Program-made: the position numbers and the translations under genes
Shown here: piece by piece, positions 203-14,378 of the stretch
Numbering within the stretch: the first letter of the stretch is position 1
How the letters are laid out: each line of letters begins with the position of its first letter
DNA from: a bacterium
Lineage (GTDB): Bacteria > Patescibacteriota > Dojkabacteria > SC72
Assembly: GCA_022840695.1 (NCBI GenBank)
Contig: JALHDC010000002.1
Location: 25,753 to 89,752 of the forward strand
Direction of reading: 5' to 3'
Length of the DNA: 64,000 nt
The notes under the pieces: model-generated
What the model was told of the DNA's origin: nothing
What the model saw: the letters and a program-made list of their open reading frames with translations, nothing else
Databases searched by the model: none

Positions 203-223
203 TACATAGGGTATTTAACATAA

Positions 224-330
224 TAGCGGCTGGGCAATGCTAAGGACATTGCAACGAGGCAGGAGCTATCGAGACATCAGCGGGCACTCCTAGGCTGTAT
301 TGTAAGCCTAAAGGTTAGTTACAAATCCAC
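224..330 (+). ncRNA. glmS ribozyme (GlcN6P-dependent self-cleaving leader) in the 5' UTR of glmS
   Basis: AGCGGC near the expected cleavage site, 6-bp P1-like hairpin GCAATG/CATTGC, AACGAGG (consensus GACGAGG) at 253-259, GGAGC-UAUCGA-...-GCGGGCA-CUCC matching the conserved P2/P2a core (UAUCGA...CGGCGGAUGCC) with a compensatory closing stem, P3-like stem TAGGCT/AGCCTA followed by AAAGG; GC-rich island in an AT-rich UTR immediately upstream of glmS; 3' boundary (P4) uncertain. Confidence 0.75.
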
Positions 331-378
331 AAACTCTAACCAACAATCCCTAATCAATTAAAATAATTAACTACTACC

Positions 379-3406: not shown

Positions 3407-3484
3407 GGTGGATGTAGCTCAACTGGTTAGAGCATCGGTTTGTGGAACCGAGGGTTGTGGGTTCAAATCCCATCTTCCACCCCA
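3407..3484 (+). tRNA. tRNA-His (anticodon GTG) with encoded G-1 and 3' CCA
   Basis: cloverleaf folded by eye: extra G-1 pairing with discriminator C73 (His-specific), acceptor GTGGATG/CTTCCAC, anticodon stem TCGGT/ACCGA, loop TTGTGGA, T-arm GTGGG-TTCAAAT-CCCAT, CCA at 3482-3484. Confidence 0.9.
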
Positions 3485-3485
3485 T
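3472..3485. repeat. attL-like direct repeat (3' end of tRNA-His), ATCTTCCACCCCAT
   Basis: identical 14-mer recurs at 14365-14378; flanking similarity TCAAATC / TGAAATC. Confidence 0.7.
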
Positions 3486-3807: not shown

Positions 3808-5025
3808 CTATATTAGCTTACCTTCAAAGGCTTTTTTAAGGATTGATTGACGGAGTGACTTTATAAAAGCTTTTTGCTCTTGAATCCTACGAATTGATTC
3901 GTCAGAGTATGTCTTTAACTTCTCAAGCTTCTTGGAAATCGCTTTTTGACGGCTTATGTCTTGAGGATAAATAAATGGCAGATTCTCTGTTTTTGATTTA
4001 TTTAATATTGGCAGTGTTGTACTAGAACTCTCAGTAGTGATTAATGAGCGTATTTTTCTGAGATAGAAATAAAGATATTTCATATCGAACTTTGGATTAG
4101 GAATAAAAGAATTGATTTGTTGGTTTGTTGTAAGCTCTACTTCTGCAATCCCGACTTTTCCAATCGTTGCACCTATGCAACATAAGAGTACTGTATCTTC
4201 AGGTAATAGTCTTACAACCCCAGTTTCGATTGCATATTTATCAATATATTTATTAGCCTTTGTGATTACGATTTCTGAGTCAGGTAAATCGCTTGGTCCG
4301 ACAAAAGGTATGTCCTGATTTGTATAGTAAAGTTTCTCCTTTGTTTGGGGTGTTTTTCCCGTGTATACTTGGAAAATATCTCCTAGTGATTTAATTTCCC
4401 AGCGATCATCTTCCTCAGGTAAGGTATGAGGGATAAGCCTCTCTAATGCACTATCCATTACCTTGTTTAATTTATCTTCAGCTTGTTTAAGCTTTGCTTC
4501 TGATTTATCTAATAATGTAAAGCATTCTTTTATTTTTGATAAGATTTCAGACTGTGTTTCTAAATCGGGCAAATTTATAGGAATTTCTCTTATGACTTTC
4601 ATCGGTTTTAAATTCTGCATTGCCGTGCCTGAAGTTTGTAGAAGATATCTCTTTTGGACATATTCTGATTCTAAGTAAAGCTTTAAAAACTCTGAGTACA
4701 CTTTTTCACTTGGTCGGATTCTTAGTAATGCTTGGTTTATAATGCCACTTTTTACACCTTTAGGAGCAATTGATAACTTTCCGATGGTTCCTGAACAACT
4801 CATGATTATGTCATTTGGTATTACTTCGAATGCCTTCATCTCTTGAAACTTCTCGCTATTTATATAATAGGAACCAAGTCTGAAATCATCGTAAATAGCA
4901 TTTTTTTGCTCATACACTTTATAACCATCTGGTACGAAAATGCTCTTCTTTAATGCTCCACCAAAAGGGCCTCTCTTTAGGTCTGCTACTTCATTTAGCT
5001 TGATTGTTTTAAAATTCTTTTTCAT
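3808..5025 (-). CDS. hsdS: type I restriction-modification specificity subunit
   Basis: 405 aa, two-TRD architecture with central and C-terminal conserved coiled-coil spacers, located after hsdM/hsdR. Confidence 0.8.
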   Translation of the reverse strand: MKKNFKTIKLNEVADLKRGPFGGALKKSIFVPDGYKVYEQKNAIYDDFRLGSYYINSEKFQEMKAFEVIPNDIIMSCSGTIGKLSIAPKGVKSGIINQALLRIRPSEKVYSEFLKLYLESEYVQKRYLLQTSGTAMQNLKPMKVIREIPINLPDLETQSEILSKIKECFTLLDKSEAKLKQAEDKLNKVMDSALERLIPHTLPEEDDRWEIKSLGDIFQVYTGKTPQTKEKLYYTNQDIPFVGPSDLPDSEIVITKANKYIDKYAIETGVVRLLPEDTVLLCCIGATIGKVGIAEVELTTNQQINSFIPNPKFDMKYLYFYLRKIRSLITTESSSTTLPILNKSKTENLPFIYPQDISRQKAISKKLEKLKTYSDESIRRIQEQKAFIKSLRQSILKKAFEGKLI

Positions 5026-5034
5026 TGCTATTTA

Positions 5035-5802
5035 TTAAAATGGTAATTCGTTTTCATTACTCACTGATTGAGGCTCTTCAATATTAAACTTTTTGTTGTA
5101 GTAGCTAATTAAAAATATTCCCACCGTAGCAACAGAATTAATGATAAATGAAGCATACAGAGGATTGTCTATAATTCTGTCTTCGGTTAATTTACCATGT
5201 GATCTAGTCTTTTCACTTCGGAGTTGTTCTATTGCTCTTGAAACAGCTAATAAGCTACTGCCTATTGTTTTCACCTCAGTAGGCATTTCTTTTTCTGGAT
5301 ATAATTGAAATTGTTTAAGAATATCAATAGCCTGTTCGTATAAAGTCTTTGTCTTATCAAAGTTTTCAAATTTACTATCCTTTAATATATGTTTTACGAT
5401 GCTTTCTAGTGCAGAATTAGCTAGTGAAATTGCATTATCTGGATGTTCGTAACATTGATTCAGTGCCTGTTTGAATGTTTCTCCAGCTGTTTGGTAGTTT
5501 ACCTTGAAAATATTATATATTTCAGATACCGCAGGTATAAAGTCTGGTGTATTAACTCCTATGTCTGCTGCGATTTGTAAAACGGTCTCATCGTCAATAT
5601 GTGTTAATGTCTGTGTCAAATCTATCTCGTTTGTATCTCCTTTGGTAATTATTACAAAATTCTGATTATTCCAATCATACTCTTCTATCCATTGCTCCAT
5701 GTATTGTCGTACACGCTTATACGTTTTGTATTCGTTCCATATAGCATTTTCAATCTCGAGTAATAACTGCATTTTGAATTTTGGAGAGATCTTATCTATC
5801 AT
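5035..5802 (-). CDS. hypothetical protein inserted between hsdM and hsdS; candidate HEPN/Abi-like defence protein
   Basis: 255 aa, start overlaps hsdM stop by 4 nt; C-terminal R-x6-H (RSEKTRSH) motif compatible with HEPN Rx4-6H; assignment tentative. Confidence 0.5.
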   Translation of the reverse strand: MIDKISPKFKMQLLLEIENAIWNEYKTYKRVRQYMEQWIEEYDWNNQNFVIITKGDTNEIDLTQTLTHIDDETVLQIAADIGVNTPDFIPAVSEIYNIFKVNYQTAGETFKQALNQCYEHPDNAISLANSALESIVKHILKDSKFENFDKTKTLYEQAIDILKQFQLYPEKEMPTEVKTIGSSLLAVSRAIEQLRSEKTRSHGKLTEDRIIDNPLYASFIINSVATVGIFLISYYNKKFNIEEPQSVSNENELPF

Positions 5803-7167: not shown

Positions 7168-8718
7168 TTATTCTTGTCCTAAAATTATCTTTTCTAACTC
7201 TTGATAAACCTTCATTTCTGGAGTAATTACTTCTGCCAATTTTTGTTTGTATGTCTTTAGGTCAATACTTTTCAAAGTAGGTGTAACAGTGTTTCTAAAT
7301 GTTATACTTAGATCCTTCAGCTCGTCATTGATTATATCTTTAACCAACTTATCATATTCTTCCTTACTCGCGTTATTATCAAGCTTTGAAACCACCTCCC
7401 AGTCATACAAATAGTTCTCAAGCTCTCTTCGTTTGAGCATTCTTCTTTTGGTCGGATTCACTTTAAGCCATTCATCTCTATTCTCATTGTCTCGATCTTT
7501 TAAAACAAAAATTTTTAGTGAATCAAATGCTTTTGCTAATACCTTTAATGCTATCTCAGAATATCCGTCTGGTTCTGTATTTCCTCCGCTTGATACAAAT
7601 AATATCTCTGGCTTCGTTATCTCAAATATCTTGTTATAACAAATAGCGTCTATTCCTCGTTCATCGTCTGTATCATTGCGACCTTCGCAATAGTAAATCT
7701 GCTCAGGAGCTAGGAGGCCAGTTAAGTCCTCCAATGTTATCTTGAACAACTTTTTCCAATTTGCTGGTGTCGTCTTCATAGGGGTTAGTATTTGTTCAAC
7801 ATCGAAATCCTTATCAAAATCTAGCACAATGCTTTTGTCTTTTAGTTCCTTTTGTAGTGCTTGTAAAAAGCCTATGCTATGTGTTGCTATCCACAACTGG
7901 CAATTGTTAGGTACAAGTTTTTCGATCTCTATTAATAAGTTTCTTTGTATAGAAGGATTTATGTGTAGCTCAGGTTCGTCAATGCAAAAGATTGTATCGT
8001 TATAAGCATCTTTTTTGATAATCAAGTCAAGAACAATGTCTAAAACTTCTTTTTCTCCCGAGGAGAGATCTTCATAAGGTATATTTCGTGCTGATCCTTT
8101 ATGAAAGAATAATTGTCCTCTTTTTTCTATGACATTTCCTAAATCTGCCACTGATATATCTCCAAGAATATTTCTTAGTGATTGGTTAATTTGTCCAAGT
8201 AAATCGTTCATAATTTCTTGCCCAGTTTTTGTTCTTGTTACAAATACATCTTTCCAAGCTTTTCCTTGAAGTCTTTCATAGTTCTCTGTTAATCTGGAAT
8301 CTATCTGAGTCATACTTCCTGGTCTGTTTGTATCATTTAACAAGTCTTGCTCTTGTGCTCGTATCTGAGTGATATTTAGAGAAGGAGTATAACGATATGG
8401 AGTCCTAATGTAAAAACTCTTATTATTCAAGGCTGCTGAGTCCTCTCTTTCCACGTTAATGTTGGAATTTCTCGAGTATGAAGCTCCGCTCGGCTCTGAA
8501 CTTGTTACATATAAAGATTTAGACAGATATGTCACTTGAGGATTATAACTAGAGCCCTTATGATTCTTGTTTAACTCTTCAAAGGCGTCAAATACTGAAC
8601 TTTTCCCCGATCCATTGGGGCCAACAAGTGCTACTATTTTAGGTGAGTATCCATCTAAATCAATCTCAAGATTAGTGAAGCGTTTAAAATCTTTCAGAAT
8701 GACCTTCTTAATTCTCAT
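7168..8718 (-). CDS. ABC/SMC-like ATPase fused to C-terminal Toprim-like domain (OLD-family / PARIS AriA-AriB-like or Gabija GajA-like defence nuclease)
   Basis: Walker A GPNGSGKSS, signature-like LSSGEKEVL, Walker B FCIDEPELH, H-loop ATHS; C-terminal YYCEGRNDTD ... VLKDRDNEN resembling Toprim E/DxD motifs; embedded between hsdR and hsdM with overlapping ends. Confidence 0.6.
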   Translation of the reverse strand: MRIKKVILKDFKRFTNLEIDLDGYSPKIVALVGPNGSGKSSVFDAFEELNKNHKGSSYNPQVTYLSKSLYVTSSEPSGASYSRNSNINVEREDSAALNNKSFYIRTPYRYTPSLNITQIRAQEQDLLNDTNRPGSMTQIDSRLTENYERLQGKAWKDVFVTRTKTGQEIMNDLLGQINQSLRNILGDISVADLGNVIEKRGQLFFHKGSARNIPYEDLSSGEKEVLDIVLDLIIKKDAYNDTIFCIDEPELHINPSIQRNLLIEIEKLVPNNCQLWIATHSIGFLQALQKELKDKSIVLDFDKDFDVEQILTPMKTTPANWKKLFKITLEDLTGLLAPEQIYYCEGRNDTDDERGIDAICYNKIFEITKPEILFVSSGGNTEPDGYSEIALKVLAKAFDSLKIFVLKDRDNENRDEWLKVNPTKRRMLKRRELENYLYDWEVVSKLDNNASKEEYDKLVKDIINDELKDLSITFRNTVTPTLKSIDLKTYKQKLAEVITPEMKVYQELEKIILGQE

Positions 8719-11449: not shown

Positions 11450-13747
11450 TTATTGTGTCTGAATAGCCATTTCTGATAGCTTTTGCTCTATTCTGTTCCA
11501 GTCTAAAATTAAATCTAAACTCTGATTCCACCAGTCACTAAATGGCAATTGTGAATCAGTCTTTTTTATTTCACTATATTGTCCAACTCGAAGTGTATCA
11601 GTCGATGGAATATTGTATGTACCTGATTCAGTAATCAACCATCTGTCGTGCAAGGAATTCTTTAATTCTGAATCTAAAATGACACGCATTTCTGCGTTTA
11701 TACCTCTGTAGTTGAGCTCTTCTTTTAAGGTTTTGAACTTTTCTCGAATCTTATGGTCTACTTTATTTATCGAAGTTATAATTTTTACAGAGGAGATTTT
11801 TGAATCTGAGCTTTCTGATATGCTTTCGGATATTAAATCCAAGCCTACGACTGAAAAGTATTTGTCTACCCATTTGATTTCGCCATATTGAGCTTTGATT
11901 ATATCCTTGAGATGTTTTGTATTCGTGTATGGACTTTGTGGTGTTATTAGGATCGTTTCCTTTTGAGCTCCTTCAAAAATGCTTCTTAATTCATTAATGA
12001 TTGTCTTCTTTCTCTCTTGAATGAAGTCATTAAAGTCTTCAGATCCGAAATTTTCTCTCGTCAGTATTTCAATAGCCTTTCTAGAAAGAAGATGTGTTTG
12101 CATTAGATCGTAGAATTGCTCGTCATTTCCGATATTTCTCTTTATCTCGTTGAGGTAATCGCTTGGAAGTCTGTCGCTAATCTTCTTGTTTGTATCATTT
12201 GAAATAGGAGCTTTGTTTAATATCGTATTTATGTCTTTTATTCCGTTTTTCTTACCCCAAGATGCTGGAACAATGTGGTGATCTTCTAATACTGAATACT
12301 CTGGTAGATTGTTTGTATAGAAATCTCTTGCTTCGTTTCTAGCAAACAAACTGAATATTGCATTATATATAGCAGTATTCTGCCTATTCTCTCTAACCAA
12401 ATCTAGATTCTCAATAGTATTAACGGCTCTTTGAACCACATTTGGTGTTATTGAATCGTCTTCTATCCATTTTTTGAGGTCTAAGTAGTCTTTTGTCATT
12501 GTTGATTCAACACTGCTCGAATAACTGTTGGATAGTACAGAAGCCCAATACCATTGTGTAATCTTCTTATCAAAAGCTTGCTGTTTTGTTGAATCGAGTG
12601 ACTCTTTTTCTTTCAGTAGAACAGCGAGAATTGGGGTCATAGTTGGATATGGAATAAACTTTGGTTGAAGTGATCCAAAATCCCTAGGATTCTCGATTTT
12701 TGCTAAAGCCTTTTGAGTATATTGTAAGGCCTCACCCCAGTATTGTGTGAATTCTTCCGGGCTTGTCATAATAACACGTTTCTCTTTTGAACCATCTTCT
12801 TTTCTAATTGTTCTTTGCGTATTAGGCACCAAGTAGTAAAGGTATCTAGGTGAGCAATATCCTTGTAGTCTGATCGACATATACTGAAGAAGGTATATGT
12901 TCATCTTTTCTAATTCCTTGTGGTTATAATTTTCAGAAGCAATTCTCCAGTTTTTCTTAAGCTCAATAGCGTGAGGCTTCAATAACGCGTTGAGAAGATC
13001 GAAGATCGTAAGTTTCAACCCAGATGAGTTGATTTTTGTAAATATATCGCACACCTTTGCGACATCGATGTCCTTTGAAAGCTCTATGTAGCTAATATCG
13101 TAACTATTAAGTAATGATTGGAAGAACTTCTCTAGCTTCTGAACTTTCTCTTCTTTTTCGGTATACCCTTGTTTCTCTAACCAATTTCCATACTGTACAA
13201 CCCACTTATACCATTCAAAGCCTTGACCAAGAAGATAAAGTGGGAATAGTCCTTCTTCGAATTGCTTTTCTAATGGTCCTACAAATTCTTCAGCAGTTCT
13301 TTGTCTTGAAGTATTGTCATTTCTGTACTCAATTGATTCGTCCCAATCGTCTTCTAAAATACTGTTTAGTTTAACAAAGAAATAGAAACGAGTTTTTCTT
13401 TTTGGAAATGGCTCTGTAGGTGGGAAAAATGCATAATGTAGAGCACTAAGTCTCTGTTGTCCGTCTAAAACAATGTGTTGGGCTGTATATTTTAGTTTCT
13501 CTTTATTGATCTTGTTAAATCCGTATATAGACTCACAATTCAGTTTATCGAAGTTTTCTGGGGTTGATCTCCAGAGAAGTAGTGTACCAATGTAATAATC
13601 TGCGAATATTGATTGCAACAATGCTTGTATATCCCAAGGTCCCCATTCAAATTCTCTTTGAAAGTCTGGAATTACATAGAATCCAGAATCTATTGCAGTT
13701 AGTATTTTGCTAAGATTGTCTTTTGACGGAGTCTCTAGGTCTCGCAT
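11450..13747 (-). CDS. DUF262 (ParB-like NTPase) / DUF1524 (His-Me finger) protein, GmrSD/BrxU-like type IV restriction enzyme, with extra C-terminal domain
   Basis: N-terminal FQREFEW and DGQQR motifs; EDHHIVP...N His-Me finger motif; 765 aa with about 200-aa uncharacterised C-terminal extension; first gene of the operon. Confidence 0.75.
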   Translation of the reverse strand: MRDLETPSKDNLSKILTAIDSGFYVIPDFQREFEWGPWDIQALLQSIFADYYIGTLLLWRSTPENFDKLNCESIYGFNKINKEKLKYTAQHIVLDGQQRLSALHYAFFPPTEPFPKRKTRFYFFVKLNSILEDDWDESIEYRNDNTSRQRTAEEFVGPLEKQFEEGLFPLYLLGQGFEWYKWVVQYGNWLEKQGYTEKEEKVQKLEKFFQSLLNSYDISYIELSKDIDVAKVCDIFTKINSSGLKLTIFDLLNALLKPHAIELKKNWRIASENYNHKELEKMNIYLLQYMSIRLQGYCSPRYLYYLVPNTQRTIRKEDGSKEKRVIMTSPEEFTQYWGEALQYTQKALAKIENPRDFGSLQPKFIPYPTMTPILAVLLKEKESLDSTKQQAFDKKITQWYWASVLSNSYSSSVESTMTKDYLDLKKWIEDDSITPNVVQRAVNTIENLDLVRENRQNTAIYNAIFSLFARNEARDFYTNNLPEYSVLEDHHIVPASWGKKNGIKDINTILNKAPISNDTNKKISDRLPSDYLNEIKRNIGNDEQFYDLMQTHLLSRKAIEILTRENFGSEDFNDFIQERKKTIINELRSIFEGAQKETILITPQSPYTNTKHLKDIIKAQYGEIKWVDKYFSVVGLDLISESISESSDSKISSVKIITSINKVDHKIREKFKTLKEELNYRGINAEMRVILDSELKNSLHDRWLITESGTYNIPSTDTLRVGQYSEIKKTDSQLPFSDWWNQSLDLILDWNRIEQKLSEMAIQTQ

Positions 13748-13886: not shown

Positions 13887-14201
13887 ATGTCTAAAACACA
13901 ATCACACATAAGAGCCCAGTCTAAGGCTGCAGGTAAAGAGGGAAAACAGGAAGTCTCCTTATCTCGAAATAGACGACTAGATGCGGTTACAAAGTCTGGG
14001 TCTCGAGCAACAGAGATTGAAAGAAGTGGAAATCCAAAACTTCTTGAGAAAGCGGCTCAGAGATTAGGAGATAGACGTTCAAGTCAGAAGGTCTTGCAAG
14101 TTCCTCAGTCAGATATGGGATTAGCTACTGCCGCAATGCGAAAAAAGGAAGTCCACGGAACAGTTAAAAATATGTCAGGCACAAAGAGGAGATCTGTATA
14201 A
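13887..14201 (+). CDS. doubtful ORF (basic 104-aa product) within a GC-rich anomalous block; may instead be noncoding
   Basis: uses codons rare for this genome (CGA, GCG, ACG, GGC); local GC far above window average. Confidence 0.15.
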   Translation: MSKTQSHIRAQSKAAGKEGKQEVSLSRNRRLDAVTKSGSRATEIERSGNPKLLEKAAQRLGDRRSSQKVLQVPQSDMGLATAAMRKKEVHGTVKNMSGTKRRSV

Positions 14202-14364: not shown

Positions 14365-14378
14365 ATCTTCCACCCCAT
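14365..14378. repeat. attR-like direct repeat ATCTTCCACCCCAT
   Basis: identical to 3472-3485 (tRNA-His 3' end). Confidence 0.7.

Follow-up and report, generated by a model that had tools for sequence, protein, structure and literature searches.

A compact single-chain ABC-ATPase/Toprim protein, probably of PARIS type, encoded between hsdR and hsdM in a Dojkabacteria restriction locus

We analyzed a 64,000-nucleotide stretch of DNA from a bacterium of the Dojkabacteria (the window; GenBank assembly GCA_022840695.1, contig JALHDC010000002.1, positions 25,753 to 89,752 of the forward strand). [quoted passage not shown] An earlier note on this DNA had placed a 516-residue open reading frame (ORF) between hsdR and hsdM; the ORF and the profiles of the flanking genes bear this out exactly, and scripted translation returned all of the motifs quoted in the note at their positions. 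The genes are tightly packed: the 3' end of hsdR overlaps the start of the target gene by 11 nt, placing the target ATG within the last hsdR codons, an AGGAGG sequence stands 8 nt upstream of this ATG, and a single base separates the TAA stop codon from the ATG of hsdM. Translation of the target gene is coupled to that of both neighbors, hsdR and hsdM. A terminator scan against shuffled controls found no terminator-like sites between hsdR, the target gene and hsdM, and promoter-like sites are no more frequent than in shuffled sequence.

The ORF is not a product of chance, since it belongs to a family for which a word-indexed search returned more than 4000 homologues with full-length coverage and an exhaustive search gave 285 clusters at 50% identity (E <= 1e-30), and since the residues of the quoted motifs fall in invariant alignment columns. 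The architecture is fixed throughout this family, at about 515-560 residues, and members are found in Patescibacteria, Pseudomonadota, Acidobacteriota, Spirochaetota and other groups. In public databases they are labeled only 'AAA family ATPase' or 'ATP-binding protein', and occasionally 'predicted ATP-dependent endonuclease of OLD family'.

The N-terminal half of the protein is an ABC ATPase, as had been proposed. The Pfam models AAA_21 (83.3 bits against a cut-off of 27, 4.3e-23, residues 28-284 over the entire 304-position model) and AAA_15 (71.6 bits against a cut-off of 32.1, 1.2e-19) both match above their gathering scores; SMC_N matches this half at 4e-11, and other P-loop models are weaker. 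The Foldseek neighbors of the full-length structure model, namely PtuA, an SMC head, GajA and the retron-Eco8 OLD protein, are likewise ABC ATPases, either from defense systems or from SMC heads. Across 114 divergent full-length representatives of the family, the Walker A lysine K39, the Walker B residues D247 and E248, H280 of the H-loop, and S219, G221 and E222 of the signature-like motif are 96-100% conserved; on the strength of these catalytic and signature residues an active ATPase is therefore expected. The structure model places a single helical hairpin between the two lobes of the ATPase domain, and this hairpin is a candidate dimerization or sensor arm. In the first ATPase insert (residues 101-150, window 8268-8418) lies a strictly conserved basic and aromatic block comprising F102, R105, Y108, R109, P133, D140, R142 and Y147. 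Such conservation is unlike the trigger-binding surfaces of AriA, which are reported to be poorly conserved, and nucleic-acid binding and interdomain contact are both possibilities for this block.

The earlier note had also described the C-terminus as Toprim-like, with a catalytic Glu and a DxD motif. Both are conserved: the five acidic residues E345, D357, D408, D410 and E434 are each present in 111-114 of the 114 representatives (at least 97%), and in an alignment of 40 homologues the invariant blocks are YCEG, GxDA (which contains D357), SSGG, LKDRD and RxxxENY. The full-length AlphaFold model is confident (mean predicted local distance difference test score, pLDDT, of 84.6), as is a model of the C-terminal domain alone (pLDDT 86.1). 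A Toprim fold is present in the model, with strands and helices in the Toprim order b-a-b-a-b-a-b, E345 directly after strand 1, and D408-R-D410 directly after strand 3. The C-terminal helical bundle that follows this core in the model is a candidate dimerization element for the nuclease.

To place this domain among the known Toprim families we draw on the relatives as well as on the target itself. When the C-termini of 29 homologues were searched alone against PADLOC, the AriAB model matched 21 (best 3.5e-10) and the AriB model 7 (best 1.7e-6), while the OLD, GajA, HEC-04, HEC-01B and RloB-type models matched none of the 29. Searched against Pfam, the same C-termini gave weak matches to DUF4435 in four cases (best E value 2.7e-4), and two of ten distant full-length members reached 18-19 bits with this model, which is under its 27-bit cut-off. 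Neither the target nor the 29 relatives have a Pfam match to OLD-like_TOPRIM (PF20469) or to RloB; a genuine GajA encoded near one relative does match the former. For the whole target protein, the best PADLOC model is AriAB (PDLC02981; 116.1 bits, 4.7e-34), with the main alignment running from residue 145 to 470 against profile positions 239-554 of 694. If the PADLOC model is taken to be the same as that of DefenseFinder, as we assume, this score exceeds the published fused-PARIS cut-offs of 80 and 20 bits (PMC9122126). Judged by its sequence relatives, the Toprim domain is thus predicted to belong to the AriB/DUF4435 branch.

We propose that the gene product is probably a compact, single-chain PARIS-type (AriAB-like) abortive-infection protein, in which a Rad50/SMC-like ABC ATPase, serving as sensor and switch, is covalently joined to a two-metal Toprim nuclease of the DUF4435/AriB branch, with a small helical bundle after it. 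Among the candidates that had been put forward, an OLD protein, a fused PARIS protein and a GajA-like protein, the evidence favors fused PARIS, as AriAB is the best whole-protein model and its family is the only defense Toprim family matched by the C-termini alone. The target shares with PARIS AriAB an ABC ATPase of the AAA_21/AAA_15 type, a Toprim domain for which AriB is the closest solved structure, carriage on mobile elements and in defense islands, and a logical link to restriction. It also shares five conserved acidic metal ligands: those of AriB are E26, D30, D88, E90 and E122 (PMC11464382), although a one-to-one mapping of the target residues onto them follows topology only. The original description of PARIS already mentioned fused ariAB genes (PMC9122126), and these make up two 'merged' clades in a phylogeny of the system (PMC11464382).

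Several observations weigh against this proposal. Searches with the target C-terminus alone (residues ~292-516) gave nothing significant in Pfam, PADLOC or PHROGs, and the target shows no match to Pfam DUF4435 (PF14491; threshold 27 bits) even at E <= 10; of the profile searches suggested beforehand, those for AAA_15 and AAA_21 were thus positive and those for an OLD Toprim and DUF4435 negative in the target, with DUF4435 appearing weakly in some of its relatives. Hidden Markov models of the family C-terminus, built once from a close (A2) and once from a divergent (A3) alignment, reached no E. coli AriB, OLD or GajA among PDB sequences, and Foldseek gave no significant match for the C-terminal model. 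The protein is also small, with its 516 residues and 59 kDa set against an AriAB profile of about 694 positions, some 180 residues longer, and against about 90 kDa for AriA and AriB together (55 and 35 kDa; PMC11464382). About 95 of the missing residues lie around the ATPase insert, where the first 144 residues of the target face about 238 profile positions and about 95 of these go unmatched, and about 95 lie at the C-terminus. In AriA a four-helix coiled-coil bundle binds Ocr and builds the hexamer; the insert of the target is far shorter, and the model shows two helices only. Roughly half of the sampled relatives have no R-M neighbor, this being the case at seven of the 13 loci, and our literature search turned up no experiments on a fused AriAB.

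The size of the protein also bears on a second reading, that it is functionally a class 1 OLD nuclease, which would nick or degrade phage or host DNA instead of tRNA and would be triggered by a change in host DNA repair or nucleotide status. The class 1 OLD proteins (P2 Old, Thermus scotoductus OLD and Vibrio cholerae OLD) are single chains with an ABC ATPase at the N-terminus and a Toprim domain at the C-terminus, have two-metal acidic sites, are often encoded by solitary genes, and are of similar length; T. scotoductus OLD (6p74) has 528 residues. The earlier description of the protein as a compact variant therefore stands in relation to the 694-position AriAB profile and falls in relation to class 1 OLD, and the statement that it is shorter than classical OLD is only partly correct. 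A review leaves unsettled whether AriAB encoded by a single gene is distinct from class 1 OLD (PMC10568477). Given that the OLD models in PADLOC and Pfam found none of the 29 family C-termini, we consider this reading unlikely, while still according it real weight.

The genomic contexts of the family give insight into how far the protein depends on its restriction neighbors. A scan of a genome collection for related loci returned true relatives at two of 80 loci, the rest being generic Walker-A matches, and the sample of contexts comprises 13 independent loci, including the window. Restriction genes adjoin six of these, five lie on mobile or defense elements without an R-M neighbor, and two are solitary among housekeeping genes. 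A relative with 61% identity stands in the same order as in the window, GmrSD-hsdR-X-hsdM. Another shares an island with TIR and AbiEii genes and with a type III mod/res pair, of which it is the immediate upstream neighbor, a third is near a FokI-like R-M system and a Schlafen/AlbA gene between two integrases, and a fourth overlaps an upstream Mrr-type endonuclease gene. Three relatives without an R-M neighbor are on integrase or recombinase elements, and another abuts a serine recombinase gene. One family member (P0035; locus L093 7001-12153) is followed, at a distance of 460 bp downstream, by a complete Gabija pair made up of a GajA that carries OLD-like_TOPRIM and a GajB of UvrD type; the two systems share one serine-recombinase element, so that two different ATPase-Toprim systems stand side by side. 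The window itself and a distant relative (locus L091 650-3948) complete the six loci with restriction genes; in the latter an IS66 insertion has removed the ATPase half and left a 245-residue Toprim remnant, with GmrSD_N, HNH_5 and hsdM genes just downstream. A split, two-gene form of the lineage was not found, as the examined matches of ~230 residues proved to be this truncated copy and another located at the end of a contig. The gene is an autonomous mobile defense module, which frequently though not invariably resides within or next to restriction systems, and the occurrence of relatives as solitary genes implies that the protein is self-sufficient.

Two further readings turn on these contexts. 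The pair of relatives among housekeeping genes, together with the matches of SMC_N, Rad50 and RecF profiles to the N-terminus, could point to a housekeeping DNA-maintenance ATPase of the SMC/RecF/Rad50 kind that stands beside R-M genes by chance. The SMC, Rad50 and RecF matches are, however, confined to the P-loop region and far under the family cut-offs, the distribution of the family is patchy and linked to mobile elements, and the protein has a conserved nuclease domain fused to it and no long coiled coils, which makes this reading extremely improbable. More serious is the idea of a guardian in the style of PrrC, bound to its own type I R-M system, which HsdR, HsdM and HsdS would keep latent and which would fire when a phage protein inactivates the complex. 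PrrC is a precedent, being an ABC-type NTPase-nuclease fusion (PMC12707154) whose gene lies within the type I R-M operon of the EcoprrI type IC locus and which steps in as a back-up once restriction is blocked. The position of the target gene, which overlaps hsdR by 11 nt and leaves 1 nt before hsdM, is consistent with such a role, as are the hsdR-X-hsdM synteny kept in the 61%-identical relative and the GmrSD and hsdM genes near the IS-truncated one. Against it, seven of the 13 loci lack an R-M neighbor and others are beside type III, type IIS or Mrr genes, which speaks for an autonomous module; whereas PrrC hardly ever occurs outside type I R-M systems, the target family mostly does. With so many relatives away from R-M genes, a PrrC-like dependence is unlikely as a family property, and for the target itself we regard the guardian reading as doubtful. 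PrrC as such is rejected as the identity of the target, since its nuclease is a HEPN anticodon nuclease and the target C-terminus has a Toprim fold. It is just as doubtful that the target is a Toprim counterpart of PrrC, which would be co-translated with HsdR and HsdM, stay silent while docked on the type I complex, and fire in cis without release of a subunit once an anti-restriction protein of a phage disables that complex. Should this be true, however, it would represent a new kind of restriction guardian and would show how a tethered PARIS nuclease is activated.

For the favored PARIS-type reading, the two-gene system provides a framework. There, AriB is kept sequestered as monomers by a hexamer of AriA; when an anti-restriction protein such as Ocr binds and ATP is hydrolyzed, AriB is set free, and the freed AriB dimerizes and cuts tRNA-Lys and other tRNAs by two-metal chemistry (PMC11464382, PMC10802264, PMC12409363). 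In the target the nuclease is tethered, and the release-and-dimerize step does not apply as such; as it is not releasable in the manner of two-gene PARIS, activation would have to occur in cis. Whereas domain identities, fold, residue conservation, operon coupling and family distribution are shown here, we infer the trigger, substrate, oligomeric state and autoinhibition of the protein, as follows. In the uninfected cell, dimers of ATPase heads or higher oligomers would keep the tethered nuclease domains apart or occluded. A cue made by the phage would bind the ATPase or the helical insert, the most plausible cue being a restriction-disabling protein such as a DNA mimic, and ATP binding and hydrolysis would then remodel the oligomer. 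Two Toprim domains could now pair through their C-terminal helices, and an active site formed by E345, D357, D408, D410 and E434 with two Mg2+ ions would cut nucleic acid of the host. If the analogy with AriB applies, the substrate would be tRNA, cut in the anticodon stem, in which case translation would stop and the infection would be aborted. The specific anti-restriction trigger is a conjecture, because about half of the sampled relatives have no R-M neighbor.

Other systems that unite an ATPase with a nuclease were compared with the target and rejected. GajA, a class 2 OLD protein, is also an ABC ATPase-Toprim fusion with ATP-regulated nuclease activity, but the neighbors of the target encode HsdR and HsdM and not a UvrD-type GajB, and its C-terminus has no GajA match; the relative that adjoins a complete Gabija pair indicates that Gabija and the target family are distinct systems. 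HEC-04 is a single-gene ABC ATPase-Toprim fusion that is likewise embedded in another defense system, and experiments have shown that it defends and that both of its active sites are needed (Payne et al., bioRxiv 10.1101/2024.01.29.577857). It represents a different lineage, being absent from the best 25 of the 127 PADLOC matches to the target as well as from the C-terminal matches. RloAB, found within Campylobacter type I R-M loci, and AbiL also combine an ATPase with a nuclease of the Toprim superfamily; these are two-gene systems with an RloB-type (PF13707) Toprim, whereas the target is a fusion without an RloB match, and its similarity to AbiLi in PADLOC is restricted to the ATPase.

The target exemplifies, with good support, a class that is already published. 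Fused AriAB proteins have been counted in surveys, and a survey of defense genes lodged inside type I R-M, BREX, DISARM and Hma systems mentions embedded PARIS (bioRxiv 10.1101/2024.01.29.577857), RloAB and PrrC being older precedents inside type I loci; as both fused AriAB and genes embedded in type I R-M are published, the target adds to types already described. Its family provides a minimal (59 kDa), widespread version encoded by a single gene, with sensor and nuclease inseparable. The main value of the target is as a minimal model, which could reveal how ABC-ATPase/Toprim defense proteins are switched in cis. In practical terms, the nuclease domain escapes Pfam across the entire family.

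Table 1. Features of the target gene and its neighbors, with positions in the window. Residue numbers refer to the target protein; fractions are counts among 114 full-length representatives.
Feature	Position	Strand	Evidence
Target gene, AriAB-like fused ABC-ATPase/Toprim protein	7168-8718	minus	ORF of 516 aa plus stop, ATG start, 59.3 kDa
hsdR, 906 aa	8708-11428	minus	Type I HsdR: ResIII 2e-37, EcoEI_R_C 2e-34, HSDR_N
hsdM, 455 aa	5799-7166	minus	N6_Mtase 1e-73, HsdM_N
hsdS, 405 aa, two target-recognition domains	3808-5025	minus	Profile matches
ABC ATPase domain, residues 1-295	7834-8718	minus	Pfam and Foldseek
Walker A GPNGSGKSS, residues 33-41	8596-8622	minus	K39 114/114
Helical hairpin insert, residues 136-185	8164-8313	minus	DSSP helices 136-160 and 166-185 in the model
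ABC signature-like LSSGEKEVL, residues 218-226	8041-8067	minus	S219, G221, E222 112-114/114
Walker B/D-loop IFCIDEPELH, residues 243-252	7963-7992	minus	D247 114/114, E248 113/114
H-loop IATHS, residues 277-281	7876-7890	minus	H280 110/114
Linker, residues 296-337, two short strands and one long helix	7708-7833	minus	Conserved P313, W321, F325, D331; alignment and model
Toprim core, residues 338-437	7408-7707	minus	b1 340-344, a1 356-365, b2 372-376, a2 383-397, b3 402-407, a3 414-420, b4 425-427
YCEG, residues 343-346, Toprim catalytic Glu E345	7681-7692	minus	E345 113/114
D357, N-terminus of helix a1	7648-7650	minus	114/114; putative counterpart of AriB D30, topology only
DRD, residues 408-410, Toprim DxD	7489-7497	minus	D408 112/114, D410 112/114
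ENY, residues 434-436	7411-7419	minus	E434 111/114, Y436 103/114; E434 putative counterpart of AriB E122
C-terminal helical bundle, residues 438-516	7171-7407	minus	pLDDT >90; ~95 residues shorter than in the AriAB profile
Abi_C protein, 255 aa, between hsdM and hsdS	5035-5802	minus	Pfam Abi_C 2.2e-9; PADLOC AbiJ C-terminal 1.4e-7
DUF262/GmrSD_N protein, 765 aa, first gene of the cluster	11450-13747	minus	Best PADLOC match HEC-05 (BrxU/GmrSD-like) 1.3e-28

The DUF262 protein encoded at the head of the cluster is likely a type IV modification-dependent enzyme. It carries the three DUF262 motifs, QREFEW at residue 30, DGQQR at 95 and FTKIN at 236, as well as a His-Me-like HHIVP at 490, and has an additional C-terminal region of ~170 residues with a weak hint of a PLD-like domain (MIT_C). 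Its presence raises the question of a multi-gene system of the Menshen or MADS kind, in which sensing would fall to the upstream DUF262 protein, transduction to the ATPase and the effector role to the fused Toprim domain. The ATPase matches NsnB (5.5e-21) and mad3 (1.8e-18), the DUF262 protein weakly matches NsnA (7.5e-5), hsdM and hsdS match mad2 and mad5, and Menshen variants with Toprim effectors exist (PMC12065111). However, the NsnB and mad3 matches cover the ATPase only and score under AriAB, and the NCBIfam MADS scores are far under their cut-offs (MAD2 130 against 720 bits, MAD3 30 against 420, MAD5 85 against 400); there is no DUF3696 match, hsdR lies between the DUF262 gene and the ATPase gene, and the DUF262 protein has its own His-Me motif and HEC-05 as its best match. 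Most relatives, moreover, have no DUF262 neighbor. Both MADS and Menshen are rejected, and this reading, very unlikely in our estimation, can be regarded as already largely refuted.

The Abi_C gene overlaps hsdM by 4 nt, and its product has the sequence RSEKTRSH at residue 195, a HEPN-like Rx4-6H motif that makes it a candidate RNase effector. As the gene is absent from the locus of the 61%-identical relative, it is probably independent of the ATPase-Toprim gene. The type I R-M system, the embedded target, this candidate HEPN nuclease and the type IV enzyme would together amount to layered defense on one small mobile island.

A tRNA-His gene (window 3408-3485) ends with the 14-mer ATCTTCCACCCCAT, and a second copy of the 14-mer is found at 14365-14378, just beyond the DUF262 gene. 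These are the only two copies in the 64-kb window, where 0.02 matches are expected, and none of 100 shuffles reached two. The pair brackets an island of ~10.9 kb that holds the entire defense operon, with no integrase inside, and has the appearance of a direct repeat of att type from an integrated element. An ORF of 104 residues on the plus strand (window 13887-14201), whose product is very basic, lies within the island, flanked by the DUF262 gene and the distal copy. Outside the island, an ordinary glmS ribozyme (Rfam RF00234, 47 bits; window 214-351) stands directly upstream of glmS (379-2166).

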